From Candidatus Omnitrophota bacterium (lineage in GTDB: Bacteria; Omnitrophota; Gorgyraeia; 2-01-FULL-45-10): 64,000 nucleotides of DNA. The notes under the pieces are model-generated. The model was not told the origin of the DNA. It worked only from the letters and a program-made list of their open reading frames with translations, and did no database searches. The position numbers were made by a program, and so were the translations under genes. Positions 893 through 53,693 of the stretch are shown piece after piece; positions within the stretch are counted from its first letter, which is position 1, and each line of letters opens with the position of its first letter. Where the stretch lies: NCBI GenBank assembly GCA_041661345.1, contig JBAZUO010000006.1, forward strand, positions 3,410 to 67,409. Reading direction: 5' to 3'.

Positions 893-1924
893 ATGCTTAA
901 AAATATAATATTAATCGTTATCAGCCTGATACTATTTTTTGCGCTGTTGGAGACAGGCGCCGCTATATATATTAAGTTGTCTTCGACGAAGCTAGCCCCA
1001 TTGACTGAAGATTTTGCCGAAACGCCTGATTCGCCCCATCTTTTCGACCGAGAGGTAGGTTACAGATTAAAACCTGTTTACTCGGATAAAAATATAAAAA
1101 CAAATTCCATGGGGTTCAGAAGCTCGCGTGATTTTGATTTCAAGGATGCGCAGCGCAAACGCGTTATGATATTAGGCGACTCGATGGCGTTCGGGTATAG
1201 GCTTGAGCAGAAAAACGTTTTTTCCGAAATACTAAACGATAAAAATATAGGATTTGATTTCGTCAATACCAGCGTTATCGGTTATACTACGGCGCAAGAA
1301 TACCTGACGTTGAAGAAATATATTGATATAATAAAACCCGAAATAATTATCCTTTTCTATTATCAGGCGAACGATATATGGGAAAACTGCAGGAATGATT
1401 GTTTTCACCCTAAGGCATATTTGAGTAACGGCAGGCTGGCTATAGCCGGTGTAAAAAAACATAGCGGGACTGCTTTTTATAAACGCTCCAATTTTTACAG
1501 ATTGCTCGATAAGCGAATATTGCAGGGAATGGACTTACAATATTTTATTCAAAGGCTGGATTTCGGGATAAGGGGTAAAAATTCCGTTGTCTGGAAAACA
1601 ATGAGAGAAATCTTAAGCGAGATAGGGGGTATCGCCCGTCGAAGAAATATCAAGGTCATAGTTATAGATATTCCTACCATAAATCAGGTCAAAAAACCTT
1701 CGGGAAGCAGGGCCCGCCAGAACCTGCTGGTGAAGGCTTGTGAGGAAGAAAAATTTTTGTACTACGACCTTCTTCTCTATTATCCCGATGATCGCAAAGA
1801 GCTGTTCTGCGACTGGAAATACGACGCCCATTGGAATAAAAATGGCCAGCAGTTCATAGCGTCATTTATTGAAAAAATATTTTCTGAGAATAAACTTTTA
1901 CACGGTAAGCATGAAAACAAATGA
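893..1924 (+). CDS. Membrane-anchored SGNH/GDSL-family hydrolase (possible glycan O-acyl esterase/transferase)
   Basis: 343 aa. N-terminal TM helix (IILIVISLILFFALLETGAAIYI). SGNH blocks present: ILGDSMAFGY (block I), QANDIWEN (block III), DAHWNKNGQ (block V, DxxH). Confidence 0.75.
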   Translation: MLKNIILIVISLILFFALLETGAAIYIKLSSTKLAPLTEDFAETPDSPHLFDREVGYRLKPVYSDKNIKTNSMGFRSSRDFDFKDAQRKRVMILGDSMAFGYRLEQKNVFSEILNDKNIGFDFVNTSVIGYTTAQEYLTLKKYIDIIKPEIIILFYYQANDIWENCRNDCFHPKAYLSNGRLAIAGVKKHSGTAFYKRSNFYRLLDKRILQGMDLQYFIQRLDFGIRGKNSVVWKTMREILSEIGGIARRRNIKVIVIDIPTINQVKKPSGSRARQNLLVKACEEEKFLYYDLLLYYPDDRKELFCDWKYDAHWNKNGQQFIASFIEKIFSENKLLHGKHENK

Positions 1925-3376
1925 TCTATGAACCGCCTTTTTCCATGATTCCTTCAAGCTTCTCATCATCTTGTTTCCGAGAACGATATTTAAAATATAA
2001 AAGAATACCGGAATGGATTTTATTTTCAAGGTAAATACGGTATCCAATATTTTATATAGCGGCTTAAGGCCTTTATAAACATTATATTCAAACCAAATAT
2101 AATTTGAAATTATCTGGCGTTTCGTGAACTCGGGCATATCCAGCGCAGCCCTCGCCCTCTCATTTCTAATATCGAGAGGCCGCTTAATCAGCCCTCTTTC
2201 CTCCGCCGACTTATATAACTCCGTACCCGGATACGGGAAAAAAATACTCAGCATGTAATGGTCCGGCTGGCATATTCTGGAAACACGGATGGTATCTTTA
2301 AAATCCTCCGCCGTTTCGCCGGGAATACCCATTAAAATATAAAATATGACTCTTATGCCATATTTTTTGGCTGACCGGACGGCTCTGAATATATCTTCAT
2401 TTGAATAATTCCTTTTCAATACGCCTCTCCTGATATTTTCATTCCCGGACTCAAGTCCGATATTTATAAAATCGAACCCGCATTTTTTCATTGTACTCAA
2501 AAGGTCTTCCGCATCTATCCCGGGCGTGATCCTTAAATTTGTACCAAATGATAACGGTTCGATCAATTCACGATTCAATTCCTCAAGCTTCGCGCAAAGC
2601 TTCTTGGCCCATTCTATATCAAGGCCAAAAGTTTCTACCTCCAAGTATATCTTTTTCACATCCCTGTTAACGAGGATCGTATCTCTTATCTCTTGTATGA
2701 TATTATCCGCGGATCTCAGCCTCACATAATCGCCGCTTGCTATTTTTCTTAAGGCATGATTACAGCAATATGCGCACAAAAAAGGGCACCCGCGTCCGAG
2801 TAAAACGGTAAAAAACTCCTTCGGCTTCTCGATCCATCGGTCCCATAATGACGTGTCGGGATAAGGCAGTATATCGATCTTCTTTAAAAATGGCCGGGTT
2901 ATATTCTTTTCGAAATTCCCACCCTTCCTGATCCAAAGGTTAGAAATACCGGACGGCGCAATATTGCCCTCCAGCTGTTTTACCAGTTCGAGAGTCGCCT
3001 CTTCCCCTTCCCCGACGCATATTGCATCGAAAGGAGCCGCAATACAGCTTTCCGGGTTTAGAGAAACGTGAGGGCCTCCTATTAACTGAAATATCCCGGG
3101 ATATCTTTTTTTTATATATTTTGCCGCATCAGTAATAAAAGCATATTCTGAAAATACGGCCGTAAAGCATATTAGGCGCGGGGAGGTTTTTTTGATAATT
3201 CTGTCTATGGCTATGAATCGCGTCTTCTTTGTTAGCACCGCCAGCTCGGTATCATGCCCTTCTTTTTTTAAAAAAGATGATATATATGAAATACCGAACG
3301 GTATGTCGGCGCGGGTAAGCAGAGGCTTATCCGGAGAGAAGGCGTCTTTAAGCGAATAAATGAACAGCACGTTCAT
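1898..3376 (-). CDS. Class B (cobalamin-binding-domain) radical SAM enzyme, paralog 1
   Basis: 492 aa. N-terminal Rossmann-type B12-binding-like domain (LIGGPHVSLNPE...ICVGEGEEATLELV) followed by GRGCPFLCAYC (CxxxCxxC). The 3' end overlaps the 893..1924 gene convergently by 27 nt. Confidence 0.9.
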   Translation of the reverse strand: MNVLFIYSLKDAFSPDKPLLTRADIPFGISYISSFLKKEGHDTELAVLTKKTRFIAIDRIIKKTSPRLICFTAVFSEYAFITDAAKYIKKRYPGIFQLIGGPHVSLNPESCIAAPFDAICVGEGEEATLELVKQLEGNIAPSGISNLWIRKGGNFEKNITRPFLKKIDILPYPDTSLWDRWIEKPKEFFTVLLGRGCPFLCAYCCNHALRKIASGDYVRLRSADNIIQEIRDTILVNRDVKKIYLEVETFGLDIEWAKKLCAKLEELNRELIEPLSFGTNLRITPGIDAEDLLSTMKKCGFDFINIGLESGNENIRRGVLKRNYSNEDIFRAVRSAKKYGIRVIFYILMGIPGETAEDFKDTIRVSRICQPDHYMLSIFFPYPGTELYKSAEERGLIKRPLDIRNERARAALDMPEFTKRQIISNYIWFEYNVYKGLKPLYKILDTVFTLKIKSIPVFFYILNIVLGNKMMRSLKESWKKAVHRSFVFMLTV

Positions 3377-3394: not shown

Positions 3395-5509
3395 TTAATT
3401 AAATACGCGCGGTTTTTTTACCGCGCTTTCATATATGCTGGAGGCGGCATCCACCATCTGTTTTACAAAAAATTTCTTTTCATAAACCAAGCGGCCGTTT
3501 TCTCCGAGCCTTTTGGCAAATAACGCATCTTTCAGCAATACGATAATAGCGTCAGCCATGGCACGCGGATCTCTGGGTTCTACTAAAAGGCCGTTCTCCT
3601 TATCTGTAATGAGCTCCGGTATACCGCCTACATTTGTTGCTATGACAGGTTTTTTTAATATCATCGCTTCTATTATCACCTGGCCCAGCCCTTCCGAAAG
3701 AGAAGGAAGCACAGTCATATCGCTTAAATATAACAACGCGTTTTTTTCTTCCTCTCCCAAATGGCCCGTAAAAAGCGTATTTTTATCTACCCCTAAACGA
3801 TTCACTTCGCTCTCGAGGCTTTTTCGCTCCGGCCCGTCGCCGATAAAAAAGAATCTTGTTCTTGGAAATTGTTCGAGTACAAAGGGTATGCTTCTTATCA
3901 GATAGATCAGTCCCTTTATGGAATATAAATTGGCTATACAGCTTACAAGCCTTTCTTCCGGATTTATCAAATAACGTCGCCGGGCATCTTCCGTTCCGCT
4001 CACCTCTATTTCCGGCAACCCGCAGTAAATAACTTTTATCTTTTTTGGATTTACATTTATTCCGGGCCGTTCATGTAAATCATTTTTTACAGCCGATGAG
4101 ACTGCTATCACATGCCTTGCGGAAATATAAACAGCTCTATAAATAAGGGATAGTATGGATTTTCTGACGCGCTTTATGATATTTTTCCCGTCGTTGAAGA
4201 AATTGTAACCGACTACGGTGGCTATATATATCCTATTCTTTATGATAGCCGCTATCGCAGCGCAAAAATCGCTCGTGAAGAGTTTTGAATGCACAATATC
4301 GATATCTTCCTTCTCTATAATGGATGCCACAGCCCTTATCGCGCTGATACTGAAAAATGTCTTTACGCGTAATTCGTAGACCTGTTTTGCATATCTCCTG
4401 TATATTCCGACCATCTTCCCGCCGGCAGGGCATACGAGGTATGGCTCATATTTATCCGGATCGATGTACTTCATCAGGCGCGCAAGTTCGGTTTCGGAGC
4501 CTCCTATTTCGGAGGAATCGATAACATATAATATTTTCAGTCTTTTTGCGGAGGAGACACATTGCCCGTCCTCTAAGTGCATGCCGGCCACGCTGGTATG
4601 CTTACCAATTATCCATCGGGAAGCTCTTAAAGGCAGGATCGCAATGAAAGAGACGAGGCAGAGCCTGAAGATATTTTTACGAAGCGCCGCGCACTCCTTG
4701 AGGGCATCAAAAGCACTTCTTTTATCACCTTCATTTAAGTATGCTAATACCATCGTGCACTTATAACTCGCCGACATATGCGCTATCTTGCTCAACGCGG
4801 ATTTGTCCTTTTTTATCTCAACATCCGCAAGATATGAATCCATTATCGCGTTCAGCTCTCTCAACATCAGGGTCCTCTTCCTGCTATGGCTTGCGGCGTG
4901 AACCCTGTATTTCACAAGGACTTCATCTATATAATCGATTTCGTGCTTTCTGGCTATTTTCAGAAAGAGATCCCAGTCTTCGGCCACTATAAACTTCTTG
5001 TCGAAAAGTCCGGCGTCCAGCAGGATATCCTTCCTGGTTATTGCGGTCATGACCGGAATAAAATCCGCCTTCAGGAGATCGTAGAACGCATGGCCGCGCT
5101 TCGGGGGCTCAATATCAAAAATGGTACGGTTCCTTATCCCGCCCTCGTCCAATATGACGCTGTTCGAATATACGAGGCCAACGCCGGGGTTTGCCTCAAA
5201 CATACGCATCTGTTTTTCCAGCTTTGTAGGCAGCCATATGTCGTCGTGGTCCAGGAAAGCGATGAACTCGCCCCGGGCCTCCAGGATTGCCTTATTGCGG
5301 GCGGCAGCTATACCCTGATTCTCCTGACGGAATAATCTTATCTTCTCCCCGTACAGCTTCCATATCTCTTCGTAAGCGCCGTCAGTAGAGCCGTCATCGA
5401 CGACAATTATCTCGTAGTCCTTGCGGGTTTGAGCAAGAACGCTGTCGATCGTCTCGACTATGAATTTTTTCCCGTTATATAACGGTATGACAACGCTTAT
5501 CTTGGGCAT
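3395..5509 (-). CDS. Two-domain glycosyltransferase: N-terminal GT2 + C-terminal GT4
   Basis: 704 aa. GT2 signatures: SVVIPLYNGKKFIVETIDSVLAQT, VVDDGSTDG, FLDHDD. Hydrophobic linker: LCLVSFIAILPL. GT4 signature near the C-terminus: SLSEGLGQVIIEAMILKKPVIATNVGGIPELI. Confidence 0.85.
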   Translation of the reverse strand: MPKISVVIPLYNGKKFIVETIDSVLAQTRKDYEIIVVDDGSTDGAYEEIWKLYGEKIRLFRQENQGIAAARNKAILEARGEFIAFLDHDDIWLPTKLEKQMRMFEANPGVGLVYSNSVILDEGGIRNRTIFDIEPPKRGHAFYDLLKADFIPVMTAITRKDILLDAGLFDKKFIVAEDWDLFLKIARKHEIDYIDEVLVKYRVHAASHSRKRTLMLRELNAIMDSYLADVEIKKDKSALSKIAHMSASYKCTMVLAYLNEGDKRSAFDALKECAALRKNIFRLCLVSFIAILPLRASRWIIGKHTSVAGMHLEDGQCVSSAKRLKILYVIDSSEIGGSETELARLMKYIDPDKYEPYLVCPAGGKMVGIYRRYAKQVYELRVKTFFSISAIRAVASIIEKEDIDIVHSKLFTSDFCAAIAAIIKNRIYIATVVGYNFFNDGKNIIKRVRKSILSLIYRAVYISARHVIAVSSAVKNDLHERPGINVNPKKIKVIYCGLPEIEVSGTEDARRRYLINPEERLVSCIANLYSIKGLIYLIRSIPFVLEQFPRTRFFFIGDGPERKSLESEVNRLGVDKNTLFTGHLGEEEKNALLYLSDMTVLPSLSEGLGQVIIEAMILKKPVIATNVGGIPELITDKENGLLVEPRDPRAMADAIIVLLKDALFAKRLGENGRLVYEKKFFVKQMVDAASSIYESAVKKPRVFN

Positions 5510-6645
5510 TACCTGCTTACACCCTTAAAAAAATTTTTTATCGAAGATATGATCCTTGTCGCATCTTCGTCGCTCATCCCATAATAAAGCGGCAGCGTAA
5601 GTATCTGGAGCGCCACTTTCTCGGTAACTGGCAGTTTGCCGCTTGCGGCTTTATAAAACGGCTGCATATGATTAGGTAAGTAATGAACGCCCGTTTCTAT
5701 GCCTCTTCTTTTCAGGTATGCCATCAGGAGGACTCTTCTGCGATCCTTTATCTTAACGATATAATTGAACGGAGCGATCTTTCGATAGTCCTTTTCGATA
5801 AGGCCTATTCCGCCTATCCGTTTCAAGCCCTTATCGTACATTGCGGCTATCTCCCTGCGCCGATCCAGAAAGATATCTATTTTCCCGAGCTGCTCCAATC
5901 CTATGGCGGCGTTCATATTGCTCATATGATACCGGTATCCAAGTTCCTTTACCTCATAAAACCACGACCTTTTATGCTTATATCTGGACCAGGTGTCCTT
6001 ATCTATGCCAAGGATCCTCTTCCTTATAATTATCCTGGCAAGATCGTCATCATTCGTCGCGACTGCACCGCCCTCTCCGCATGTGATAACCTTTATCGGG
6101 TCAAAACTAAAACAGGCCGCGTCGCCGAACGAACCTATCTTCTTACCTTTATATGCGGAACCGAATGCGTGGGCCGCATCTTCTATAACATGCATATGCT
6201 TATCCTGAGCCAGGTTCAAAAGCGCATCCATATCACAGGGCAGGCCCGAATAATGAACCGGCAGGATCGCTCTTGTATTTTTCGTGATCTTTCCGGCCGC
6301 GTCATCTATATCGATATTGAGGGTATCCTCATCGACGTCGCAGAAAATCGCTTTTGCGCCACACATGGAGACCGCGTGCGCCGTCGCGACAAATGTCAGT
6401 GAGGGGACTATCACCTCATCGCCTGCGCCTATTCCATAACTTTCCAGAGCGATATGAAGAGCGGAGGTTCCCGTGTTAACCGCTATGACATTTCTGACGC
6501 CCAGATAATTCTTCAGGGCTTCTTCAAATTCGTGAACCACTGACCCCATTCCGAGCCACCCGGTATCGAAGACCCGCCTCACACAGGCAAGTTCCTTCGC
6601 ATCAAGATACGGTTTGGCACATGGAATATTAGAGTATTTTTTCAT
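5509..6645 (-). CDS. DegT/DnrJ/EryC1/StrS-family PLP-dependent sugar aminotransferase
   Basis: 378 aa. Motifs NTGTSALHIAL, ILPVHYSGLPCDMD and FSFDPIKVITCGEGGAV (Schiff-base lysine context). One-nt start/stop overlaps at both ends (TAATG, TGATG). Confidence 0.9.
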   Translation of the reverse strand: MKKYSNIPCAKPYLDAKELACVRRVFDTGWLGMGSVVHEFEEALKNYLGVRNVIAVNTGTSALHIALESYGIGAGDEVIVPSLTFVATAHAVSMCGAKAIFCDVDEDTLNIDIDDAAGKITKNTRAILPVHYSGLPCDMDALLNLAQDKHMHVIEDAAHAFGSAYKGKKIGSFGDAACFSFDPIKVITCGEGGAVATNDDDLARIIIRKRILGIDKDTWSRYKHKRSWFYEVKELGYRYHMSNMNAAIGLEQLGKIDIFLDRRREIAAMYDKGLKRIGGIGLIEKDYRKIAPFNYIVKIKDRRRVLLMAYLKRRGIETGVHYLPNHMQPFYKAASGKLPVTEKVALQILTLPLYYGMSDEDATRIISSIKNFFKGVSR

Positions 6646-7409
6646 CAGGCATTGACCCCCTCACACCAATATACGTCCCATCTCGTTTTTTTCTCCAAAA
6701 AACCTTCGCTGATCCGGGGAAATCCCGCGGCCTTCATAACACGATCAAAATCATGCCGATTGCGCAAATATCCCCAGAACTGCCCGCGTTCTTTAATGCC
6801 GAGCGCATCGAATATCGAGGCCGCCAGGTCTTTCGCCGGCTTTGCTATTTTTTTAATCAGGCTGTCAGCATTTTTTTCGAAATCGAACGACACGCTTATC
6901 ATCAAGCAGGTGCCGCCCGGCAATAAATACCTCTTTACCGATTTCAATACATCAGACAATTGCTCCTGGTTGAAGAAGTATTCCGCGGCCGAGAGATATA
7001 TACACCGATAAAGGCGGTCATTCGGCAGACATTCCGGGAAGAGGCCTATATGCGCCCTCTCGGCGGCAATGTGCGGCAATATCCAGCGTAAAGGGTCTTG
7101 CGAAACTTCCGTCACCTCCAGATTATTAAATCCGGCATCTATCAGCACTTTTTCCACCACTCCCAGGCCGCATCCGATCGAAAGGATCCTGCCGTCTTTA
7201 TCCTCGCTGTGGCGGTCTACGATAAAACTACCGACCTGCCGCTTCAAATCCATCCACTCTCTGTCGAGGTCATCCCATTTTTTATATTTTTCAAAAAATG
7301 CCTTATAGAAAGATGAATAGAAAGACGCATCGGCCATCTTGGACGAGGACGGTTTCGAAAATGTCTTGAAAGGAATGGCGTGCCACTCTGACTGATAAAT
7401 TTTCTTCAT
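6645..7409 (-). CDS. Class I SAM-dependent methyltransferase
   Basis: Motif I ILSIGCGLGVVE and post-I LLPGGTCLM. The track ORF starts at 7475. I prefer ATG 7409 (MKKIYQSEWH...) because it forms an ATGA overlap with the stop of the upstream kinase gene. Confidence 0.8.
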   Translation of the reverse strand: MKKIYQSEWHAIPFKTFSKPSSSKMADASFYSSFYKAFFEKYKKWDDLDREWMDLKRQVGSFIVDRHSEDKDGRILSIGCGLGVVEKVLIDAGFNNLEVTEVSQDPLRWILPHIAAERAHIGLFPECLPNDRLYRCIYLSAAEYFFNQEQLSDVLKSVKRYLLPGGTCLMISVSFDFEKNADSLIKKIAKPAKDLAASIFDALGIKERGQFWGYLRNRHDFDRVMKAAGFPRISEGFLEKKTRWDVYWCEGVNA

Positions 7410-8167
7410 ATCCGTTTTAATGCCTCCGAAACCTTGCCGTCTATTTCCGATATCTCGGCAGCCGTGAAATCGCATACCGGGAATTTACACGGGAATACCG
7501 ATATCTGGTTCCCCCATCTCTCGGCATTCCCATCTATAAAACCCCTCGTAAACCTAAGAGGGAATTTCGTCAACCCGGGATCTGATCTATTATCGGCATT
7601 GAGACGATCTATGTTTTCGGCGATGATATCCACCTCTTGCGGAGTGATCCGTCCGCCTCGCCGCCTCATGCCGAACCATAACGTCTCGAATAAAAGGTGA
7701 AGGGCATCGTATGCCCATGGTGCGCCGTCCCGGCTGAAATGTTCCCAATCTATGATGGTGACCTTCCCGGCATTTACAATAATATTATCTATCGAGAGGT
7801 CGCCGTGTAACGGGAAGCCGGCGCTTGAGGACCGGGGCCATGTTTCGCAATAATGGCTGACCGCCTTTCGAATTATATCGACGTTTTTTTCCAGACCGCA
7901 TCTATAGTCGGCCTTCCTGCCTTCAATAAATTTTATCTCGATCTTAAGGTACCCCTTCCCCTGCGCGGCTATTCTGCACAACGGATGCCCCGCGGAAGAT
8001 CCGATTGCTTCCTGGTACCAACCCCATCCTTCTATTTCCCGGTTCAGGTTTTCAATACCACACGGGGTCGAAGCGGTTTTGAATATCCTCTTTTCCCCGG
8101 CGCCGCCGGCTGCAAGATAAGTGGAGATTTCGCTCCCATGCGAACAGTTCCTGATCAACTCTATCAT
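7406..8167 (-). CDS. APH/choline-kinase-fold small-molecule kinase (phosphotransferase enzyme family)
   Basis: 253 aa. Brenner-type motif HGDLSIDNIIV followed by VTIIDWEHF (metal-binding Asp). Size and layout match aminoglycoside/choline/sugar kinases. Confidence 0.75.
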   Translation of the reverse strand: MIELIRNCSHGSEISTYLAAGGAGEKRIFKTASTPCGIENLNREIEGWGWYQEAIGSSAGHPLCRIAAQGKGYLKIEIKFIEGRKADYRCGLEKNVDIIRKAVSHYCETWPRSSSAGFPLHGDLSIDNIIVNAGKVTIIDWEHFSRDGAPWAYDALHLLFETLWFGMRRRGGRITPQEVDIIAENIDRLNADNRSDPGLTKFPLRFTRGFIDGNAERWGNQISVFPCKFPVCDFTAAEISEIDGKVSEALKRI

Positions 8168-31385: not shown

Positions 31386-31396
31386 AGGTGCTTATA

Positions 31397-32042: not shown

Positions 32043-32071
32043 TTGACATAACATTTGGATCTCAATATAAT
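32043..32071 (+). promoter_or_regulatory. Perfect-consensus sigma70 promoter (TTGACA-17-TATAAT) for the radical SAM/SPASM gene
   Basis: TTGACA at 32043..32048, the 17-nt spacer taacatttggatctcaa and TATAAT at 32066..32071. In-frame ATG 32082 begins 11 nt after the -10 box. Confidence 0.6.
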
Positions 32072-32081
32072 GACAGCCGCT

Positions 32082-35601: not shown

Positions 35602-35610
35602 AGGTTCGCC

Positions 35611-36966: not shown

Positions 36967-36967
36967 C

Positions 36968-38044: not shown

Positions 38045-38048
38045 CGGT

Positions 38049-40530: not shown

Positions 40531-40533
40531 AAC

Positions 40534-44505: not shown

Positions 44506-44515
44506 CTTAACCCTA

Positions 44516-45466
44516 TCATGCCTTCCTTAAAATAAAACAGATATTCTGTCCAAAATTTTTTATTACCGGGTTACCTCCTACGCGCCTTTCGATCCAGGAT
44601 AGGCGTTTGTATATGTCGAGGCCGAATCTTCTAAAAACAAGGCTTATGAGATTTCTCGGTAATACCATAAACGAAAATATATCGACTTCTTCCAGCCCGC
44701 TTTCCAGCAGCAATCTCTTCCATCTCGAAGGCAGATAATTATAAACCTCATCAAAATAATTTTTGTACGCGCCATGAGGCTCCGGAAGAGGAAAATGCGG
44801 CCTATTCTTCTTCATCCTCTCAAAAATGCCGAGGTTATCATCGCCGGAAACGATTGTCATGGTATCCTTTTTGCTTATCCGGCCGGAACTGCGCGTAAAA
44901 AGACGATGCCACATTGCCGACAGGAAGTCCGCGTAAAAAATTACCGGATAATAGGCTACCCTCTCCATGAAATTCGGGACTATAACGATAAATAATCCGC
45001 CTTTTTTGAGCACCCTCTTTACATCCGCGATCATCTTTTCCCTATTCGGGACATGCTCAAGCGTATACATCGAAAACACCATGTCAAACATCCCGGCCTT
45101 AAACGGCAGGTCTTCCCCTGAACATGAAACCAGCTCGCAGTTCCTGATCGCTAGACGCGCGGTTAATTCTTTCGCGGTACCCATCCCAACAGAGTGGCTC
45201 TTCGAATCCTGGCCGTAAAGATCCGTTGCAATTACGCTATCCGCAAATTTAGATAATACGCATGAATTGAAGCCATTGCCGCAGCCTATTTCCAGAAGTT
45301 TTCCGCAATCCTTTAAGTTTATAAACGATAAAAGATTTTCCATCTCCATGCCGCGCAGTTCAAAGTAATTACCCCACGGCTCAAGATTTCCCGCTTTTAT
45401 CCTGGCTTCGTTTTTTACTTCATCTACGCAATTCATTGAATATTCCCGCCAACTCCTGCGCCACAT
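44516..45466 (-). CDS. Class I SAM-dependent methyltransferase
   Basis: 316 aa. Motifs LLEIGCGNGFNS (motif I), FDMVFSMYTLEHV and KKGGLFIVIVPN. The start may instead be the internal ATG at 45436. Confidence 0.8.
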   Translation of the reverse strand: MWRRSWREYSMNCVDEVKNEARIKAGNLEPWGNYFELRGMEMENLLSFINLKDCGKLLEIGCGNGFNSCVLSKFADSVIATDLYGQDSKSHSVGMGTAKELTARLAIRNCELVSCSGEDLPFKAGMFDMVFSMYTLEHVPNREKMIADVKRVLKKGGLFIVIVPNFMERVAYYPVIFYADFLSAMWHRLFTRSSGRISKKDTMTIVSGDDNLGIFERMKKNRPHFPLPEPHGAYKNYFDEVYNYLPSRWKRLLLESGLEEVDIFSFMVLPRNLISLVFRRFGLDIYKRLSWIERRVGGNPVIKNFGQNICFILRKA

Positions 45467-46643
45467 AAGACCTGGTATAACTTTTTAATTTTTCTTCATC
45501 AATGCCGGATGCAACAAAGCCAATTTCCTTGTGTTCGTTGTAACACTTTAATAATATTTCTTTCAGCTCCTTTTTGGAATTAGCTACAAAACCGGCGTTA
45601 AGCTCTCTTACAAGGCCGTTCACGATACTGTCCTTTTCGGATATCACAATTATGGGCCTGCGGGAGCCAAGATATTCAAATATCTTGGCAGAATACCAGC
45701 CGCTAGCCCCTTTCCATTGAAAAAATAATAGCATCGACGAACTCTTCTGAATCCTTAACGCCTCCTTATAATCGACCGGGCCGTGCTCTTTCACTATATC
45801 ATCGATTTTGTATTTACCGGCAAGGCCCGATATATCGGCTTTTTCAAATCCCAGCGTATAGAATTCTATATCTATTTTATTCCTATCTATCGATCCATCC
45901 TTAACGCATTCGCTTACCGCCTCAAATAGGACTTCCGGATCCTGAGACACGCGATTCAGCTTGCCGGTATACCCCATAGTGAATTTTTCAGGCTTCATCG
46001 ATGGCATGCCATTAAAATCTTCTTCGTCGAATCCGTTTGTAACAACCCTTATCCTGCTCGGCGCAACTCTGCTCGTTCGCGCCAGGGCTCGCGCCCAATT
46101 ACTGGAGACTATTGTAATCAAGTCAGCGTCTTTTAGGACTTTTCTTTCAAGCGGTATGGAAAATATACGCTTTTTTAGAAAAAATTCCTTTTCGAAATGG
46201 TAGTCCGACCACAGATCCCTCATATCCGCTATCCACGGAAGCCCCGTCTTCTCCTTGACCAGCCTGCCTATCATGTGTGCGGTCGATGGAGGAGACATCG
46301 AAAAAATGACATCGAACCTTTCTTCTCCATGCAATTTTAAAGCCTGCTTCAATGCGTGATCCAACCAACCTATATTGGTATCCGGCACTAAAAGTAACTT
46401 CCTCAATCTATCGGGAAGAAACACGAATTTCTCCTCATAGCCGGTCTTTACGATTTTATAAAAATTCATGTCCATTCCGGCATCCTCTGATCTGGACATA
46501 GAGGCCCGCGCGCTGTCATCGGTCGTGAGAACCGTAGGCATCCACCCAAACTTGGGCAGATACTTCACGAACTTTAAAGCCCTCATCACGCCAACACCGC
46601 CTTTGGGCGGCCATGAATACGTTATGAACAAGACCTTCTTCAT
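45420..46643 (-). CDS. GT4-like (GT-B) glycosyltransferase
   Basis: 407 aa. N-terminus MKKVLFITYSWPPKGGVGVMRALKFVKYLPKFGW, as in many GT4 'group 1' enzymes. Two Rossmann halves. Confidence 0.7.
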   Translation of the reverse strand: MKKVLFITYSWPPKGGVGVMRALKFVKYLPKFGWMPTVLTTDDSARASMSRSEDAGMDMNFYKIVKTGYEEKFVFLPDRLRKLLLVPDTNIGWLDHALKQALKLHGEERFDVIFSMSPPSTAHMIGRLVKEKTGLPWIADMRDLWSDYHFEKEFFLKKRIFSIPLERKVLKDADLITIVSSNWARALARTSRVAPSRIRVVTNGFDEEDFNGMPSMKPEKFTMGYTGKLNRVSQDPEVLFEAVSECVKDGSIDRNKIDIEFYTLGFEKADISGLAGKYKIDDIVKEHGPVDYKEALRIQKSSSMLLFFQWKGASGWYSAKIFEYLGSRRPIIVISEKDSIVNGLVRELNAGFVANSKKELKEILLKCYNEHKEIGFVASGIDEEKLKSYTRSYVAQELAGIFNELRR

Positions 46644-46662: not shown

Positions 46663-47733
46663 TCATCTGCCCTTATTATCGGTACACACCATGCATGGCT
46701 CCGGGAGAAGAGAGCTGTCTTTCGATAAAAATTTTCTTCTCATCGATTTGAAAAATTCGTTATTCCAGACATCGGCATCCCTGAAACTGCCGTGCCCTTC
46801 CATGTTAAGAAGCATCATGGAACAACTGGAAACGTTCCCGTCCCCATCGATCCTTATCTGTGAAAAATATGTGCTACAGCGTATCTGCTTAGATTGCGCA
46901 TCCACAAGGATCGGCGGCGTGATCTTTTTTCTCACAGAAACAGGATATTTTTTTAACATACCTTCGATTTCTGCCGATAAATCAGGGTCATACATCAATA
47001 CTCTCTCCTCAGCCCTGAGCCCATCATATGGGCTTGGCAGAAAATTGCAGAAAAAGATACGGTCAACGCCAAGCTTTAGCCCTACGCCTACCATTTCCGG
47101 GATAAATTTGTAATTTAATTTGTCTACTATAAACGAGAGCTTTATATTCACTCGCGAGCGCCTTCTATCCCTCTCCTCCACCAAATGTTTCGTCGCATCA
47201 TATATCTGATTATAGATACCGCCGTCCATGCCGGTCATCCTCGCAAACTCTTCCGGATTATGGCCGTTGATGCTTATCGTTATACCGTCCAGCTCTGAAT
47301 TCAATATATTGTCTATATTTTTTTCTATAACGGTACCGTTTGAAAAAGTTTTAACGACCATCCTCCTGGAAGCGGCGTAATCCACCATCTTGAATAAATC
47401 CTTATTTAGGAGCGGCTCGCCGGAACCAATGATATGAAGAGTAACGGCACTGCTAAAGCGATCCACTATCTCTTTGAACATAATAAAATCGATATCCTTG
47501 ATATTATTCTGCCGGTTAGGGTAATCACGCGGCACACGTGATGAATGTGTGGGGCACATATCACAGGCAAGCGTGCAGCGGTTTGTCGCCACTATCGAGA
47601 TCGTTACCGGAGCATATTCAAGGCATTCCCTCCTCCCTGAAAATAGATATTTAATATAATTATATTTCTGCGGGATCGTATGATTGCTCCATACAATCTC
47701 TAAAATATCTCTGATCATGGCAATCGTATTCAT
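46663..47733 (-). CDS. Radical SAM enzyme with Cys-rich SPASM/twitch-like C-terminus
   Basis: 356 aa. Motif VATNRCTLACDMCPTH (CxxxCxxC). C-terminal cysteines at RCSTYF, VSSCSMM and PCMVCTDN. ATGA-coupled to the upstream class B radical SAM gene. Confidence 0.85.
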   Translation of the reverse strand: MNTIAMIRDILEIVWSNHTIPQKYNYIKYLFSGRRECLEYAPVTISIVATNRCTLACDMCPTHSSRVPRDYPNRQNNIKDIDFIMFKEIVDRFSSAVTLHIIGSGEPLLNKDLFKMVDYAASRRMVVKTFSNGTVIEKNIDNILNSELDGITISINGHNPEEFARMTGMDGGIYNQIYDATKHLVEERDRRRSRVNIKLSFIVDKLNYKFIPEMVGVGLKLGVDRIFFCNFLPSPYDGLRAEERVLMYDPDLSAEIEGMLKKYPVSVRKKITPPILVDAQSKQIRCSTYFSQIRIDGDGNVSSCSMMLLNMEGHGSFRDADVWNNEFFKSMRRKFLSKDSSLLPEPCMVCTDNKGR

Positions 47734-51099: not shown

Positions 51100-52215
51100 T
51101 TATCTCTTAAAGAATTCCATGATCTTTTTTATAACGTAATCCTTCTGTTCGATTTTCAGTTCCGGATAAACGGCGATCGCGAATGTTTCGAGCGATGCGG
51201 CCTCAGACTCTTTCAGGTCTCCTTTTTTATATCCAAGGCTTTTATAACATTCCTGCAGGTGAAGCGGTATCGGGTAATAAGTTCTGGTCTCAACGCCGCC
51301 GTCTACGAGAAACCTCATCAGCTTTTCGAGGCCGGACCGGACTCTTAAAACATACTGATGATAGGTATGAATATTATGGCTGGGAACGTAAGGCAGGATT
51401 AATGGCAGGGTTTTTAAATTTTCATTATAATACATCGCATTGGCCCTGCGCGCTGCAAGCCATTTATCGAGATATCTTAATTTAACCCTCAACACAGCGG
51501 CCTGGATATTATCAAGCCTTGAATTGGTTCCGATTACGGCGTGGACATATCTTACGGAACTGCCGTGAACTCTCAACATCGTAAGCCTTTCAGCCAGGCT
51601 CTTGTCATTAGTAACTACCATGCCGCCTTCGCCGAATGCCCCGAGGTTCTTGCTAGGAAAGAAGCTTAGCGCCCCGAGATCCCCCATTGAACCGGCTTTT
51701 TTGCCTTTATATACGGCGCCTATAGCCTGAGCGCAGTCTTCCACGATCTTTAGCCCATGTTTCCCGGCAATGGCAAGTATCGGATCCATCTCAGCGCATT
51801 GGCCGTAAAGATGAACGGGTATGATAGCCTTAGTTCGTTTACTGATCTTCCGCTCGATGAGATTAGGGTCTATATTGTATGTCTTTGGGTCGATATCCAC
51901 GAATACGGGCTTCGCGCCCACCAGCGAGATGACTTCCGCGGAAGAGAAGAACGTAAAAGGCGATGTGATCACCTCGTCACCCGGTTTTATCCCAAGCGCC
52001 ATAAGCGACAATAGGAGCGCGTCTGTACCCGATGCCACACCTACGGCATATTTCGTATTACAATACCGGGCGATCTCCTTTTCAAGTTCCTTTAAATCTT
52101 CGCCCAATATAAAATTCTGGCTTTCCACCACCCTGTCAACAGCTTCCTTTACCTCTTTTTTGATCGTTTCGTATTGCCCTTTTAAGTCTAATATAGAAAT
52201 CTGCATACCCTTCAT
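51100..52215 (-). CDS. DegT/DnrJ/EryC1/StrS-family PLP-dependent sugar aminotransferase
   Basis: 371 aa. Motifs GVASGTDALLLSL, IIPVHLYGQCAEMD and LSFFPSKNLGAFGEGG (catalytic Lys context). Confidence 0.9.
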   Translation of the reverse strand: MKGMQISILDLKGQYETIKKEVKEAVDRVVESQNFILGEDLKELEKEIARYCNTKYAVGVASGTDALLLSLMALGIKPGDEVITSPFTFFSSAEVISLVGAKPVFVDIDPKTYNIDPNLIERKISKRTKAIIPVHLYGQCAEMDPILAIAGKHGLKIVEDCAQAIGAVYKGKKAGSMGDLGALSFFPSKNLGAFGEGGMVVTNDKSLAERLTMLRVHGSSVRYVHAVIGTNSRLDNIQAAVLRVKLRYLDKWLAARRANAMYYNENLKTLPLILPYVPSHNIHTYHQYVLRVRSGLEKLMRFLVDGGVETRTYYPIPLHLQECYKSLGYKKGDLKESEAASLETFAIAVYPELKIEQKDYVIKKIMEFFKR

Positions 52216-53693
52216 CCTTTCTTGATATTATTTTTTAAATTCCTTTTAACGAATTTATTCACCCCAAGCCCGGACAAAACCACCATAAGTTTTTTAAAAT
52301 TTATAAGCCTCCCCGCCAGAAATCCGATCACCAGACCATATCTTTTCGTGAATAGCCCTGTAAAATATTTTGTAGCGACACGATTGCTCAGCCTCTTACC
52401 AAGTTTTAACGCCTTTATCCTGTCCTTGCATGGAAAATCATCCGTTTCAAAGATAGGAAATCCGGAATAATAGGAAAGCCGGTCGAGGTATTTCTCATCC
52501 TTATCAAGAAAAATAGAATTTTTTCTGATCCAGTCAAATACTTCTGTCCCCGGATAAGGAACGAGATTATAAAAATTGATCTTGTCTACGGGCCAGTTTT
52601 CGACCTTTTTTATATACTCCCTGATCATATTTAAATTTTCACCGGGATGTCCGATAATAAAAGTTGCGCCGACATACTCTATTCCGGCCTTTTTTGCAAG
52701 GCGCACCGCGCTTTCCGCCTGAGAAACCTTTATCCCCTTACCCATTCTCGCCAATATATCATTGTTCCCGCTTTCCACGCCGAACATGATAATTTTACAT
52801 CCGGATTGCTTCATCTTAAGGAGGAGGGATTCGCTGACCCTGTCCGCTCTCGTACCATTACCTAAAAACCAGCTTATTTTTAAATCGGCTTTGATTATAA
52901 GATCGCAAATCTCCTCTGACCGTTTCATGTCAAAGGTAAAGCAATCATCTATGAATTCGAATTCCTCATACCCTAAGTTTTTCCAATGGATGAGTTCGTC
53001 AAATACATTTTTAGGAGAGCGCGGCCTAAAATTTCTTCCCATAGTCAGCCTTACCGCACAATAATTACAATTATAAGGACAGCCTCTTGATGACGCGATA
53101 TTGATCCTCTTCCTCCTGGCGTATCTATCTATCTCAAAATCTTCATACGCCGGAAAAGGAAGGCTGTCCAGGTCCGTTATGGGCTCCCTGTCGGCATTTT
53201 CCGTAACTGCGCCGTCTCTTTTAAAAATCAGGCCTTTTATCTCTTCCGGGCCGGAAATATTGCCTTTAAGAAATTCCAGAAGCTCAATAAGCGTGAATTC
53301 CCCCTCACCCTTGATCGCATAATCAGCTTCGGTCTCACGCAAACTCTCCTGTCTAACCGATGAAACGTGGGGCCCGCCTATAACTACAGGAATATCAACG
53401 ATCTCTTTTATTTTCTTTATCAAGGCTTGTGTTTTGCTTCGCTCGAGGCTCCAATAGCTTATACCTACAACGGTCGGTTTGTAATCGGCAATTATATCTT
53501 TTATATCTCCGACAGAATAACCTAATCGCATATCTATAGCCTTAAAATCTATAGAATTCTTCTTCAGCATCCCCGATAGATAGGCCAAACCCACAGGAGG
53601 CTCATTAGGAACGCCGAGATCAAAACTCTCAATACTTATCTTAGGCATGATAAGCAGTATATTATGCGAACTTATCGGTCTATTCTGCTGCAT
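52212..53693 (-). CDS. Class B (cobalamin-binding-domain) radical SAM enzyme, paralog 7; first gene of the 53693->32993 array
   Basis: 493 aa. Motifs VIGGPHVSSVRQE...AIKGEGEFTLIELLEFL, then SRGCPYNCNYC. Confidence 0.9.
   Translation of the reverse strand: MQQNRPISSHNILLIMPKISIESFDLGVPNEPPVGLAYLSGMLKKNSIDFKAIDMRLGYSVGDIKDIIADYKPTVVGISYWSLERSKTQALIKKIKEIVDIPVVIGGPHVSSVRQESLRETEADYAIKGEGEFTLIELLEFLKGNISGPEEIKGLIFKRDGAVTENADREPITDLDSLPFPAYEDFEIDRYARRKRINIASSRGCPYNCNYCAVRLTMGRNFRPRSPKNVFDELIHWKNLGYEEFEFIDDCFTFDMKRSEEICDLIIKADLKISWFLGNGTRADRVSESLLLKMKQSGCKIIMFGVESGNNDILARMGKGIKVSQAESAVRLAKKAGIEYVGATFIIGHPGENLNMIREYIKKVENWPVDKINFYNLVPYPGTEVFDWIRKNSIFLDKDEKYLDRLSYYSGFPIFETDDFPCKDRIKALKLGKRLSNRVATKYFTGLFTKRYGLVIGFLAGRLINFKKLMVVLSGLGVNKFVKRNLKNNIKKG

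Follow-up and report, generated by a model that had tools for sequence, protein, structure and literature searches.

Nine radical SAM genes in a probably composite surface-glycoconjugate locus of Candidatus Omnitrophota

Radical SAM (rSAM) enzymes act on a range of substrates. BtrN, DesII and BlsE are sugar-acting rSAMs; enzymes of the GenK/DesII type use free sugar intermediates as substrates, DesII a dTDP-sugar, and MoeK5 acts on a lipid-anchored sugar. The class B enzymes MgmA (the MCR glutamine methylase), Mmp10, PoyC and TsrM target amino-acid residues. HpnJ and Cds act on lipid-anchored sugars (PMC13459092). The window analyzed here, a 64,000-nucleotide stretch of a Candidatus Omnitrophota metagenome-assembled genome (MAG), holds nine rSAM genes in a cell-surface sugar gene cluster of ~60 kb. 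Radical SAM tailoring of surface sugars is the best reading of this arrangement. On balance, the evidence leans toward a composite surface-glycoconjugate locus in which all nine rSAMs tailor sugars, across at least three separately conserved modules and by the mechanisms proposed below.

All nine rSAM ORFs are present where a first-pass annotation of this DNA had placed them (all domain calls from Pfam):

1898..3376, minus strand: B1, B12-binding + radical SAM, 492 aa, C-terminal hydrophobic helix (TM scan)
20025..21458, minus strand: B2, B12-binding + radical SAM, 477 aa
21463..22914, minus strand: B3, B12-binding-like + radical SAM, 483 aa
28015..29634, minus strand: B4, B12-binding + radical SAM, 539 aa, the most divergent paralog
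29625..31046, minus strand: B5, B12-binding + radical SAM, first gene of the 1898-31046 array
32055..33035, plus strand: S1, radical SAM + SPASM/twitch (SPASM 49.3 bits)
46663..47733, minus strand: S2, radical SAM + Cys-rich SPASM-like tail, 356 aa
47730..49211, minus strand: B6, B12-binding + radical SAM
52212..53693, minus strand: B7, B12-binding + radical SAM, first gene of the 32993-53693 array

The domain calls made for these proteins were correct. PF02310 B12-binding (36-79 bits, cutoff 32.1 bits) and PF04055 Radical_SAM (52-108 bits, cutoff 29.5 bits) are matched in all seven B-type ORFs, and PF04055 with PF13186 SPASM (cutoff 21.5 bits) in S1 and S2. The longest ORFs of B5 (29625-31106) and B6 (47730-49301) extend beyond starts 31046 and 49211, which agree with NCBI models of 473 and 493 aa. 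The (S/G)RGCxxxCxxC motif was found in 7/7 B-type ORFs. A GGPH...GEGE motif, likewise ascribed to all seven, is exact in B1, B2 and B7 and varies in the other four: GGPH...GDGE (B4), GGIH (B5), GGAH/LEGE (B6) and FGSH/FREPE (B3). The weakest PF02310 scores belong to B3 and B4. The B12-type enzymes may use cobalamin, but sequence does not show whether they bind it. Pairwise identity among the seven is only 20-36% (25-30% between B1 and the others), and they are accordingly regarded as old, distinct subfamilies. None of the nine reaches the cutoff of a named NCBIfam family, and none qualifies as GenK, HpnJ, OxsB or any other named type. The absence of all nine from named non-glycan families (NCBIfam, 0/9) was counted in favor of sugar tailoring. 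Solubility is predicted for all nine, apart from the C-terminal helix of B1.

The rSAM genes are embedded in tightly packed arrays, as had been claimed: in the two minus-strand arrays, 1898-31046 (26 genes) and 32993-53693 (17 genes), genes overlap or are separated by at most 19 bp. Promoter-like sites lie near the start of B7 (53750-53721, weak evidence) and upstream of B5 on the minus strand (31119-31091), the latter likewise weak evidence because such sites are no more numerous than in shuffled sequence. rSAMs account for 9 of the 54 window genes (P ~3e-5 under an assumed genomic background rate of 3%). Their clustering is judged to be beyond chance above all because other genomes show the same arrangements of rSAM and glycan genes, a recurrence that carries more weight than this P value. 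Pfam also bears out the described surroundings, with glycosyltransferases, methyltransferases, aminotransferases of the DegT and class III types and a Wzx flippase. It finds no flippase of the GtrA or ArnE/F type in the window, nor an initiating phosphoglycosyltransferase, Wzy or Wzz.

Module 1 (18259-25494) is a GT-C/GT2/B3/B2/ABC cassette, with these genes beside the two rSAMs:

18259..20022, minus strand: ABC half-transporter (TMD+NBD; Pfam), five hydrophobic segments in the TM scan
22934..23878, minus strand: ArnC/GtrB-type polyprenyl-phosphate GT2, 314 aa, two C-terminal TM helices (Pfam, TM scan)
23875..25494, minus strand: unk539, divergent ArnT/PMT_2-like GT-C, 539 aa (homologs, TM scan, Foldseek)

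The GT2 has ArnC as its best NCBIfam match (177 bits, near full length, below cutoff), followed by PgfS, AglJ and Dol-P hexose transferase, and the same topology is found upstream of B12-rSAMs in nine other loci. The stop of unk539 overlaps the GT2 start. This protein has no direct Pfam match, but 23/31 of its homologs match PF13231 PMT_2, and residues D40-E41 are invariant among them. It has at least eight TM helices and a soluble C-terminus, and Foldseek of its AF2 model (pLDDT 91) returns ArnT (5ezm/5f15; TM 0.60, prob 1.0) ahead of AglB, PglB, DPY19, Pmt4 and AftA. The family of B2 is large, well conserved (45-71% identity) and shared by bacteria and archaea. In Foldseek, the AF2 model of B2 (pLDDT 91) matches AprD4 best (TM 0.76-0.80), then MgmA, TsrM, OxsB, CysS and TokK; AprD4 is not known to use cobalamin. 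The named model nearest to B3 is HpnJ (268.7 bits, cutoff 577.6). The degenerate GEGE motif and weak PF02310 score of B3 were counted against cobalamin binding.

At least six further genomes, bacterial as well as archaeal, carry the GT2 + rSAM pair; an interposed class I methyltransferase and a GT-C usually accompany it. The order GT2, B12-rSAM, (class I methyltransferase), B12-rSAM, GT-C (DUF2079/PMT_2) is seen in four loci (L001, L003, L004, L005) that hold true orthologs of both B2 and B3, making B3 a conserved partner of B2. Variants occur in L006 (Methanosarcinales MAG), L019, L020, L024, L085 and L091 (Nanoarchaeia MAG). The methyltransferase is absent between B3 and B2 here, though present in most other cassettes. 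In L003 the cassette stands alone amid unrelated metabolic genes with no nucleotide-sugar genes, suggesting a self-contained unit. In L004 and L091, deacetylases of the ArnD or PIG-L family are encoded close to the cassette, and a single protein, P0111, is a GT2-B12-rSAM fusion.

We infer the substrates, step order and reaction types of the rSAMs as follows. In module 1, the ArnC-like GT2 would move a sugar from a nucleotide donor to polyprenyl phosphate at the cytoplasmic face, and soluble B3 and B2 would then alter that sugar, most likely while it is lipid-linked. By analogy, C-methylation, dehydration and ring contraction are candidate product chemistries: after H-abstraction by a 5'-deoxyadenosyl radical, the first guess would be methyl transfer from methylcobalamin, with AprD4-like dehydration or HpnJ/Cds-like ring contraction as alternatives. 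The ABC half-transporter, 2 bp downstream of B2 and a candidate flippase/exporter of the cassette product, or another flippase, would carry the product across the membrane, where the ArnT-like GT-C would attach it to LPS/lipid A, a glycan chain or a protein as the extracytoplasmic acceptor.

A different view of the same enzymes is that they tailor the glycan, but always on soluble cytoplasmic nucleotide-sugar precursors and never on a polyprenyl-phosphate-linked sugar, GT2-rSAM adjacency mirroring only a shared pathway. We consider this unlikely, though still deserving serious attention. It accords with the predicted solubility of the nine proteins apart from the B1 helix, with the position of B6, B7 and S2 amid the nucleotide-sugar enzymes DegT, AsnB and FdtA, and with the likeness of S1 to DesII. 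However, the fusion protein, strict GT2-rSAM adjacency recurring across domains, the L003 cassette, the nearby deacetylases and the lipid-anchored precedents of HpnJ, Cds and MoeK5 all speak for membrane-linked substrates. The rSAMs of module 1 probably tailor a lipid-linked sugar.

Module 2 comprises a nonulosonic-acid block (3395-17435) with B4, B5 and B1, and is listed here with the genes next to B4:

3395..17435, minus strand: ulosonic/nonulosonic-acid (KDN-type) module (Pfam, NCBIfam), in window order GT2+GT4 fusion, DegT, methyltransferase, APH-like kinase, methyltransferase, LIC12162-family transferase (9229-10983), NeuB-like synthase, KdsC/KDN-9-P-phosphatase-like HAD, SDR, class III aminotransferase, AAC(3)-like N-acetyltransferase, PseF-like cytidylyltransferase, class III aminotransferase
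25510..27504, minus strand: function-unassigned protein, 664 aa, one TM helix (TM scan, weak similarity)
27524..28018, minus strand: MarR/TrmB-like HTH regulator inside the array (Pfam)

The LIC12162-family transferase is a clear match (TIGR04331, 411 bits, cutoff 225), and the HAD scores 106 bits, below cutoff, with the KDN-9-P phosphatase model. The C-terminus of the 664-aa protein weakly resembles TagF-type (E=0.0018) and KpsC/S-type (E=0.18) transferases, neither match reaching its cutoff. Gene set and order of the KDN-type block are matched in L090 and L089. The B4 family is rare (~15 orthologs), and in both other contexts examined, the same two loci, its members lie beside LIC12162/NeuB/CMP-transferase genes. 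B1 closes the long minus-strand array and adjoins the GT2+GT4 fusion. The product of module 2 would be a nonulosonic acid of the KDN type, CMP-activated, aminated, N-acetylated and methylated; B4-family rSAMs may modify it, and the LIC12162-family transferase would install it.

Module 3 (39274-53693) is centered on B6, S2 and B7, and its surroundings include the S1 pair and flanking precursor genes (all Pfam):

31388..32035, plus strand: class I methyltransferase, paired with S1
33793..46643, minus strand: assembly/export block with a 12-TM PMT_2-like protein, unk602 (33793-35601), GT2+methyltransferase fusion, two GT1, PMT_2, GT2, Wzx flippase, FdtA isomerase, GT1, methyltransferase, GT4
49201-51093, minus strand: AsnB-type amidotransferase, between B6 and B7
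51100-52215, minus strand: DegT aminotransferase, between B6 and B7
53911..63926, mixed strands: precursor/accessory block with GT2 (plus), GT2+methyltransferase, PMT_2, GDSL/SGNH protein, two NDP-sugar epimerases/dehydratases, UDP-glucose dehydrogenase, RmlD, RmlB (62940-63926)

The run DegT-AsnB-B6-S2-...-FdtA-Wzx-GT2-PMT_2 shows 13-gene synteny (47-70% amino-acid identity) with metagenome contig L087, where the B6 ortholog (70% identical) adjoins an S2 ortholog (61%). S2 is translationally coupled to B6; its SPASM score of 22.0 bits barely passes the cutoff, with no single stretch passing, and its PDB relatives are limited to SkfB (E=0.007). AsnB and DegT are conserved in L087, L002 and L089. 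In L086, a B7 ortholog (70% identical) adjoins a B12-rSAM + class I methyltransferase fusion and a PMT_2-like gene, and a homolog of unk602 is weakly annotated PMT_2. The supposed likeness of S1 to BtrN is upheld by a PDB sequence search (4e-14), with DesII and BlsE next. A dTDP-3-amino-3,6-dideoxyhexose-type sugar may be formed through RmlB, FdtA and DegT, and AsnB, B6, S2 and B7 would tailor it ahead of Wzx-dependent assembly.

The locus, or part of it, could alternatively make a secreted aminoglycoside-like or pseudo-oligosaccharide natural product, with the AAC(3)-like and APH-like genes providing self-resistance and the ABC protein export. Its DegT and class III aminotransferases, AAC(3)- and APH-family proteins, BtrN-like S1, AprD4-like B2 fold, GenK-like B12-rSAMs, ABC exporter and MarR regulator recall aminoglycoside clusters, and L089 carries a DHQ-synthase-like sugar-phosphate cyclase. 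Yet the window lacks a 2-deoxy-scyllo-inosose synthase/DHQS-like gene and bears envelope-glycan hallmarks: Wzx, four GT-C/PMT_2-like proteins, the ArnC-like GT2, at least ten glycosyltransferases, NeuB with CMP-transferase and LIC12162 O-antigen-family transferase, RmlB/D and UGDH. We give this explanation little credence. Less probable again is modification of membrane lipids (GrsA/B-, Hgm/Gmm-, HpnP/R- or ladderane-type) or glycan-unrelated head groups, co-location with glycan genes reflecting only a common envelope role. Omnitrophota carry Mss/Hbs lipid rSAM homologs (10.1101/2023.10.20.563219), and top partial NCBIfam matches include HpnJ, HpnR and a "lipid biosynthesis B12-binding/radical SAM protein" model, but all lipid-family scores fall far under their cutoffs, lipid-synthesis genes (tes, mss, shc, hpn) are missing from the window, and the conserved neighbors are GT2, GT-C, DegT, AsnB and NeuB. 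Least probable of all is modification of a protein or peptide (RiPP-like or glycoprotein acceptor): MgmA ranks second among the structural matches of B2, the partial matches include ApyD and RiPP C-methyltransferase models, and PMT-family GT-Cs can glycosylate proteins, but gaps of at most 19 bp leave no room for a precursor-peptide gene, RiPP recognition, leader-peptidase and YcaO-type genes are absent, and the conserved fusion and adjacency involve GT2.

The linkage of rSAM to glycan genes is also borne out by a neighborhood survey. Glycosyltransferase/sugar genes make up 22% of ORFs within 1 kb of homologous rSAMs vs 9% beyond 6 kb, and this enrichment, the synteny elsewhere and the P0111 fusion affirm the proposed rSAM-glycan linkage. 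Of 80 more distant homologous loci, only 38% have a recognizable glycan gene as direct neighbor, which shows that glycan linkage is not exclusive across the wider clade. At least two B12-rSAMs occur in 36/80 sampled loci, with up to six in 16 kb. Multi-rSAM glycan loci are thus common in uncultured anaerobes, and this one is not unique. Nearly all homologs come from MAGs of mostly anaerobic lineages, which fits the anaerobic host that had been suggested.

The idea of one locus building one hypermodified glycan also oversimplifies. The window combines at least three modules, each found independently elsewhere, and may feed several glycoconjugates; its sub-modules recur in many uncultured bacteria and archaea. 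No published description of such systems was found in open-access text, and the system appears to be undescribed, though not unique. Among known enzymes, the aminoglycoside-sugar enzyme AprD4 has the fold closest to the predicted B2 model. Among known pathways, the order epimerase, DegT, ArnC-like GT2, rSAM, rSAM in L019 and L024 resembles the Arn pathway, and module 1 itself would amount to a three-component system of the Arn/Gtr type that has gained radical chemistry.

The nine radical SAM (rSAM) proteins encoded in the window lie where the first-pass annotation had placed them, and the ORF listing and Pfam confirm their architecture. Seven (B1-B7) combine B12-binding and Radical_SAM domains, and two (S1 and S2) combine Radical_SAM and SPASM domains.

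B1, 1898-3376, minus strand: PF02310 then PF04055
B2, 20025-21458, minus strand: PF02310 then PF04055
B3, 21463-22914, minus strand: PF02310 then PF04055
B4, 28015-29634, minus strand: PF02310 then PF04055
B5, 29625-31046/31106, minus strand: PF02310 then PF04055
B6, 47730-49211/49301, minus strand: PF02310 then PF04055
B7, 52212-53693, minus strand: PF02310 then PF04055
S1, 32055-33035, plus strand: PF04055 and PF13186 (SPASM)
S2, 46663-47733, minus strand: PF04055 and PF13186 (SPASM), the latter borderline

In Pfam, PF02310 matches all seven B proteins at 36.1-79.0 bits against a gathering score of 32.1, with marginal scores for B3 (37.9 bits) and B4 (36.1 bits), and PF04055 matches all seven at 52-108 bits against a cutoff of 29.5. 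PF13186 scores 49.3 bits in S1 and a borderline 22.0 bits in S2, where the cutoff is 21.5. For B5 and B6, the shorter starts (31046 and 49211) agree with the NCBI gene models. Two motifs had been described for the B proteins on first pass. RGCxxxCxxC is indeed invariant in a seven-way alignment, whereas 'GGPH...GEGE' is exact in only three proteins and varies in the others, B3 being the most degenerate (FGSH...FREPE). Pairwise identity among B1-B7 is only 20-36%, which rules out recent tandem duplication as their origin; judged by these alignments, they are old, distinct subfamilies. Nine rSAMs among 54 window genes is far above a plausible genomic background, assumed here to be 3% of genes.

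Placement of these proteins in families rests on HMM cutoffs and PDB comparisons. An exact-sequence match assigns the window to a 67,950-bp contig of a Candidatus Omnitrophota MAG. NCBI annotates its rSAM proteins only as 'radical SAM protein' or 'YgiQ-like' (MFA6142100 and following), and none of the nine reaches the cutoff of a named NCBIfam family, all matches being partial. HpnJ and BchE lead the sub-cutoff matches among the B12-type proteins. HpnJ (TIGR03471) scores best for B3, at 268.7 bits against an equivalog cutoff of 577.6 (52-226 for the others), and BchE (TIGR02026) reaches at most 235.5 bits against 481. AprD4 (NF033070; at most 138 bits against 500) and MgmA (TIGR04014; at most 145 against 360) are likewise rejected, as are PhpK, HpnR, TsrM, KedN5, BzaD and the ladderane-lipid rSAM models, which match partially and under each curated cutoff. 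The leading NCBIfam model for S1 and S2 is a tungsten-cofactor maturase (~95 bits against a cutoff of 380), and no named NCBIfam SPASM family is at cutoff for either. The nine proteins are thus best classed, by sequence, as rSAMs of the class B and SPASM types that belong to no named family.

Amino-sugar-acting enzymes are the nearest structural neighbours of the window rSAMs. A profile of the seven paralogs searched against the PDB matches AprD4, MgmA (9ccb), OxsB, TsrM, CysS and TokK. The AlphaFold model of B2, the one modelled among the seven, has a pLDDT of 91, and its best Foldseek match is the paromamine 1,2-diol dehydratase AprD4 (TM 0.76-0.80). Across AprD4, MgmA, TsrM, OxsB, CysS and TokK, Foldseek E values range from 1e-19 to 1e-26 and TM from 0.66 to 0.76, so that the overall fold of B2 is predicted to be like that of solved class B enzymes. 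In a PDB sequence search, S1 matches BtrN (4m7s; 55 bits, E=4e-14) along two segments, the better of which covers the C-terminal auxiliary-cluster region; its further solved relatives, DesII and BlsE, are, like BtrN, sugar-acting rSAMs. The same search gives S2 no similarity to BtrN and no close solved relative. B1-B7 may use cobalamin; AprD4 carries a B12-binding domain yet uses none, and we know of no sequence rule for cobalamin binding or use.

Nearly all genes of the window are on the minus strand, separated by gaps of at most 19 bp or overlapping, in long arrays running from 31046 to 1898 (26 genes), from 53693 to 32993 (17 genes) and from 63926 to 54648. The only sizeable intergenic gaps, of 341 and 217 bp, lie ahead of B5 and B7. 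Both contain sensibly placed sigma-70-like sites, which are weak evidence, their count being not above that in shuffled sequence. Two apparent ORF overlaps are long (6645-7475/7406-8167, 70 nt; 17796-18341/18259-20022, 83 nt), and in the downstream gene of each pair, the methyltransferase gene MT_a (6645-7475) and XylTIM_N (17796-18341), translation probably begins inside the longest ORF. A MarR/TrmB-like HTH regulator (27524-28018, minus strand) sits mid-array between B4, to which a 4-nt overlap couples it translationally, and unk664 (25510-27504, minus strand), a 664-aa protein with a single transmembrane helix whose C-terminal part weakly resembles TagF-type glycerophosphotransferases, KpsC/S-type capsule transferases and the BFO_1060 glycosyltransferase model.

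The gene content includes at least 10 glycosyltransferases, four GT-C/PMT_2-like membrane proteins, seven methyltransferase domains and four aminotransferases (two DegT and two class III). It also includes RmlB, RmlD, UGDH, epimerases, FdtA, an AsnB-type amidotransferase, two SGNH/GDSL proteins, an ABC half-transporter, the MarR-like regulator and a Wzx flippase (41483-42982; Polysacc_synt/Polysacc_synt_3 matches, at least nine transmembrane helices). Pfam finds no Bac_transf, Glycos_transf_4, Wzy_C or Wzz match in the window; as an initiating phosphoglycosyltransferase, Wzy and Wzz all went undetected there, indispensable steps of the pathway would have to be encoded at other sites of the genome. 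The window also has no GtrA- or ArnE/F-type small flippase, nor free coding space for one, and its 54 genes include no Pfam families of a hopanoid context (shc, hpnH/I/K). Scans of the whole window with Rfam found nothing, including no cobalamin riboswitch, and a tRNA scan found no gene. Direct Pfam and NCBIfam searches return nothing significant for unk664, for unk539 (539 aa; 23875-25494) or for the 12-transmembrane-helix protein unk602 (602 aa; 33793-35601).

The most useful new result is a conserved cassette of a GT-C protein, an ArnC-like GT2 and two rSAMs, small enough for direct test, which the window carries as module 1 (18259-25494). The B2 family is large, with members 45-71% identical in Thermodesulfobacteriota, Omnitrophota, Elusimicrobiota, Chloroflexota, Nanoarchaeia, Hodarchaeota and Methanosarcinales MAGs. 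All contexts of B2 orthologs with enough flanking DNA contain the cassette, in the order ~310-aa GT2, B12-rSAM, usually a ~220-aa class I methyltransferase, B12-rSAM and a large membrane protein annotated as DUF2079 or PMT_2 or left unannotated. True B3 orthologs partner B2 orthologs in the comparison loci L001, L004 and L005, the cassette stands alone amid unrelated genes in L003, and variants occur in L006, L019, L020, L024, L085 and a Nanoarchaeia MAG (L091).

The window GT2 (22934-23878) matches ArnC as its best NCBIfam model over nearly the full length, followed by PgfS, AglJ and Dol-P hexose transferase, all under their equivalog cutoffs. It is not an ArnC ortholog, since its ArnC score is 177 bits where the cutoff is 529. 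It ends in two transmembrane helices, as is typical for polyprenyl-phosphate glycosyltransferases, and nine GT2s preceding rSAMs at other loci share this topology. The GT2 is accordingly predicted to be of the polyprenyl-phosphate type (ArnC/GtrB/DPMS-like). The stop of unk539 overlaps the GT2 start, the two genes sharing 4 nt. A transmembrane scan gives unk539 at least eight helices and a soluble C-terminal domain; 23 of its 31 remote homologs match PMT_2, and a D-E pair after the first helix is invariant among its homologs. Its AlphaFold model (pLDDT 91) finds ArnT best in Foldseek (TM 0.60), then AglB, PglB, DPY19, Pmt4 and AftA. On the strength of these homologs and the predicted structure, unk539 is best read as a divergent ArnT-like GT-C protein. 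BLASTP finds no similarity between unk539 and the DUF2079/PMT_2 proteins of L001 and L004, so the cassettes do not share an orthologous GT-C partner. An ABC half-transporter, which may serve as the flippase, is encoded 2 bp past B2.

Relatives of the cassette tie its parts together more closely. P0111, a homologous protein encoded in L002 (8120-10324), unites GT2, B12-binding and radical SAM domains in one 734-aa polypeptide. L019 and L024 show the order epimerase, DegT, ArnC-like GT2, rSAM, (methyltransferase), rSAM. ArnD and HpnK deacylate lipid-linked amino sugars ahead of the next step, and they are echoed near the GT2/rSAM cassette by an ArnD-family (Polysacc_deac_1) deacetylase in L004 (5525-6289) and a PIG-L-family deacetylase in L091 (970-1608). 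Because of these GT2, GT-C, fusion, gene-order and deacetylase links, the anatomy of module 1 is that of an Arn/Gtr-type three-component lipid-carrier pathway with two radical enzymes inserted.

Module 2 (3395-17435 with B4, B5 and B1) contains a KDN-type nonulosonic-acid set: a NeuB-like synthase, a KdsC/KDN-9-P-phosphatase-like HAD protein, a PseF-like cytidylyltransferase and a LIC12162-family transferase. The last (9229-10983, 584 aa) is a bona fide family member, matching TIGR04331 over its full length with 411.1 bits against a cutoff of 225. The B4 family is rare (~15 orthologs), and in both other contexts examined (L089 and L090) its members lie near or beside a LIC12162-family transferase. 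These blocks also encode CTP_transf_3, NeuB or an HpcH aldolase, a class III aminotransferase, an AP_endonuc_2 TIM barrel, SDRs and another B12-rSAM, and L090 continues with methyltransferase, APH, methyltransferase and DegT genes in the same order as the window from 9210 to 5509, at 43-57% identity. Given these contexts, and since B5 and B1 bracket the array, B4 belongs with the ulosonic-acid pathway, and B5 and B1 probably do so too. Module 2 further contains an AAC(3)-family 'aminoglycoside N-acetyltransferase' (14519-15352, minus strand; 142 bits against a cutoff of 270) and, inside the nonulosonic-acid genes, an APH-family kinase-like protein (7406-8167, minus strand). These are probably sugar N-acetylating and phosphorylating enzymes rather than resistance genes, as which automated pipelines could mislabel them in such loci. 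The gene for a xylose-isomerase-like TIM barrel (AP_endonuc_2) is broken into two ORFs, 17419-17799 and 17796-18341 (minus strand, 4-nt overlap); its L090 ortholog is a single 284-aa gene (1007-1861), and a frameshift, whether it marks a pseudogene or an assembly error, probably explains the break.

Module 3 (39274-53693), the presumed amino-deoxyhexose module with B6, S2 and B7, is likewise conserved elsewhere. L087 is syntenic with the window from 52215 to 39274 over 13 genes (47-70% amino-acid identity), in the order DegT, AsnB, B6, S2, (an extra B12-rSAM), GT4, methyltransferase, GT1, FdtA, Wzx, GT2, PMT_2. In L086, a 70% identical B7 ortholog adjoins an unk602 homolog, weakly annotated as PMT_2, and a 717-aa fusion (7855-10008) of B12-binding, radical SAM and class I methyltransferase domains; UGDH, an FdtA-like isomerase, a nucleotidyltransferase and RmlB are further genes of this locus. 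A more distant B7 relative lies amid GT2, PMT, GT4 and MptA/B-type genes.

The generality of these associations was assessed on 80 loci from species-representative genomes, picked solely by similarity to the B2 family; the set is a sample rather than a census and consists mostly of 29-38% paralogs rather than orthologs. The 80 best genome matches listed are all MAGs or uncultured (DPANN, Bathyarchaeia, Omnitrophota, Dehalococcoidia, CPR, Desulfobacterota and others), and the absence of cultured isolates among them may explain why the B2-type family is uncharacterised. At least two B12-rSAM ORFs occur in 36 of the sampled loci, and a recognisable glycosyltransferase or sugar-pathway gene lies within 300 bp of an rSAM in 30. 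Among neighbouring ORFs, such genes make up 22% at distances up to 1 kb and 9% at distances above 6 kb. All these figures are lower bounds, given the insensitivity of single-sequence phmmer. The association of rSAM and glycan genes is thus real and local, and not universal in the wider clade. Some uncultured genomes have rSAM clusters denser than that of the window: six B12-rSAM ORFs in 16 kb (L020), five in 8.6 kb (L054), five with two SPASM rSAMs in 21 kb (L077) and four consecutive SPASM rSAMs (L080). The link of the rSAM genes to glycan synthesis proposed on first pass is borne out by conserved cassettes and synteny elsewhere, the GT2-rSAM fusion and local enrichment, and an anaerobic, uncultured host is supported. 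The single locus then envisaged is glycan-linked, but it is a composite of recurrent modules and not a one-off.

The substrates of the rSAMs appear to be sugars, and that of module 1 would be lipid-linked. B3 and B2 could modify a sugar on polyprenyl phosphate, or just before it is loaded there, after which the ArnT-like GT-C would place the modified sugar outside the membrane. As methylases account for the majority of characterised class B enzymes (PMC9204698), C-methylation is a first guess for the reaction. AprD4-like dehydration is plausible from the predicted structural match, and an HpnJ/Cds-type ring contraction of a lipid-anchored hexose is plausible by analogy with the GT2-rSAM pair HpnI/HpnJ; the three are indistinguishable from sequence. 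A broader reading, to which we give less than an even chance, is a widespread, cross-domain and unrecognised route. In it, B12-type rSAMs would act on polyprenyl-phosphate monosaccharides made by ArnC-like GT2s, yielding C-methylated, deoxygenated or ring-contracted (carbocyclic) sugars that ArnT-like GT-C proteins deliver to the envelope. In the window, radical enzymes would in addition tailor a nonulosonic acid and a 3-amino-dideoxyhexose, giving several radical-derived modifications.

Action of the rSAMs purely on nucleotide sugars is a serious alternative to this lipid-linked route, and probably the better reading for module 3. An aminoglycoside-like biosynthetic gene cluster (BGC) instead of a surface glycan is suggested by a parts list of AAC(3), APH, BtrN-like and AprD4-like proteins, but it is outweighed by the Wzx flippase, the four GT-C proteins and the NeuB/LIC12162 genes, and the window has no 2-deoxy-scyllo-inosose synthase. 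Lipid-core or peptide substrates are unlikely, as the neighbouring genes speak against both and no coding space is left for a precursor peptide.

In open-access full text, we found no link of B12-type rSAMs to O-antigen, capsule or glycan loci, ArnC/ArnT/GtrB systems, GT-C proteins or nonulosonic acids, and no description of such systems in Omnitrophota. In a recent genome survey of that phylum, radical SAM appears only as one of the domains of giant proteins, and LPS and capsule glycosyltransferases are named as hypervariable cargo. To our knowledge, the sugars on which rSAMs are documented to act are those of antibiotics and of two lipid head groups (HpnJ and Cds), and not those of envelope polysaccharides. 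The surface glycans of uncultured anaerobes (Omnitrophota, DPANN, CPR, Bathyarchaeia, Desulfobacterota) are chemically almost unknown. The cassette is portable, has four to five genes (a GT2, two rSAMs, a GT-C and optionally a methyltransferase) and is conserved in bacteria and archaea. It makes many unassigned class B rSAMs testable in E. coli, and work on it would show on what class of substrate several class B subfamilies act that are large and so far unannotated. C-methylated or carbocyclic sugars, should these be the products, would add new building blocks to glycans, and the enzymes would be new biocatalysts; such sugars might withstand glycosidases, a property of possible importance to nanobacteria that depend on hosts or are predatory.

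The finding combines two known kinds of system, three-component lipid-carrier glycosylation and class B rSAM tailoring of sugars. With Arn and Gtr systems it shares a polyprenyl-phosphate GT2 with C-terminal transmembrane helices paired with an ArnT-like GT-C, and with Arn also the epimerase/dehydratase and DegT genes just upstream of the GT2 in L019 and L024. It differs in the two B12-type rSAMs, usually with a class I methyltransferase, between GT2 and GT-C, and in having an ABC half-transporter in place of ArnA, ArnE/F or GtrA.

In the HpnI-HpnK-HpnJ and Cds systems, a GT2 puts a hexosamine or hexose on a lipid, and the sugar so anchored is then remodelled by an rSAM (HpnJ, Cds; PMC13459092). 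Among named models, HpnJ scores highest for B3, B6, B7 and B1 (121-269 bits against a cutoff of 577.6). Here, however, there are no hopanoid or GDGT genes, two rSAMs occur together, polyprenyl phosphate is the probable carrier, and a GT-C would hand the product on. The rSAMs AprD4, GenK/GenD1, BtrN, DesII, BlsE and OxsB act on carbons of amino sugars or cyclitols; B2 and the seven-paralog profile match AprD4 best, in structure and in sequence, and S1 has its best PDB matches in BtrN and DesII. Identity to these aminoglycoside and nucleoside enzymes is only 16-22%, and the setting here is an envelope glycan (Wzx, GT-C, NeuB) and not an aminocyclitol BGC.

The role of MoeK5 is sugar C-methylation. 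This B12-binding rSAM methylase of moenomycin (10.1101/2023.10.20.563219) offers a likeness of pathway: a B12-rSAM takes part in building a glycan on a phospho-lipid anchor, although the product is a secondary-metabolite phosphoglycolipid, made with a single rSAM and without GT-C transfer. Leptospira-type O-antigen and nonulosonic-acid loci, finally, resemble module 2 in having a LIC12162 transferase beside NeuB-like, KdsC-like and CMP-transferase genes, to which the window and the L089 and L090 blocks add B12-rSAMs of the B4 family.
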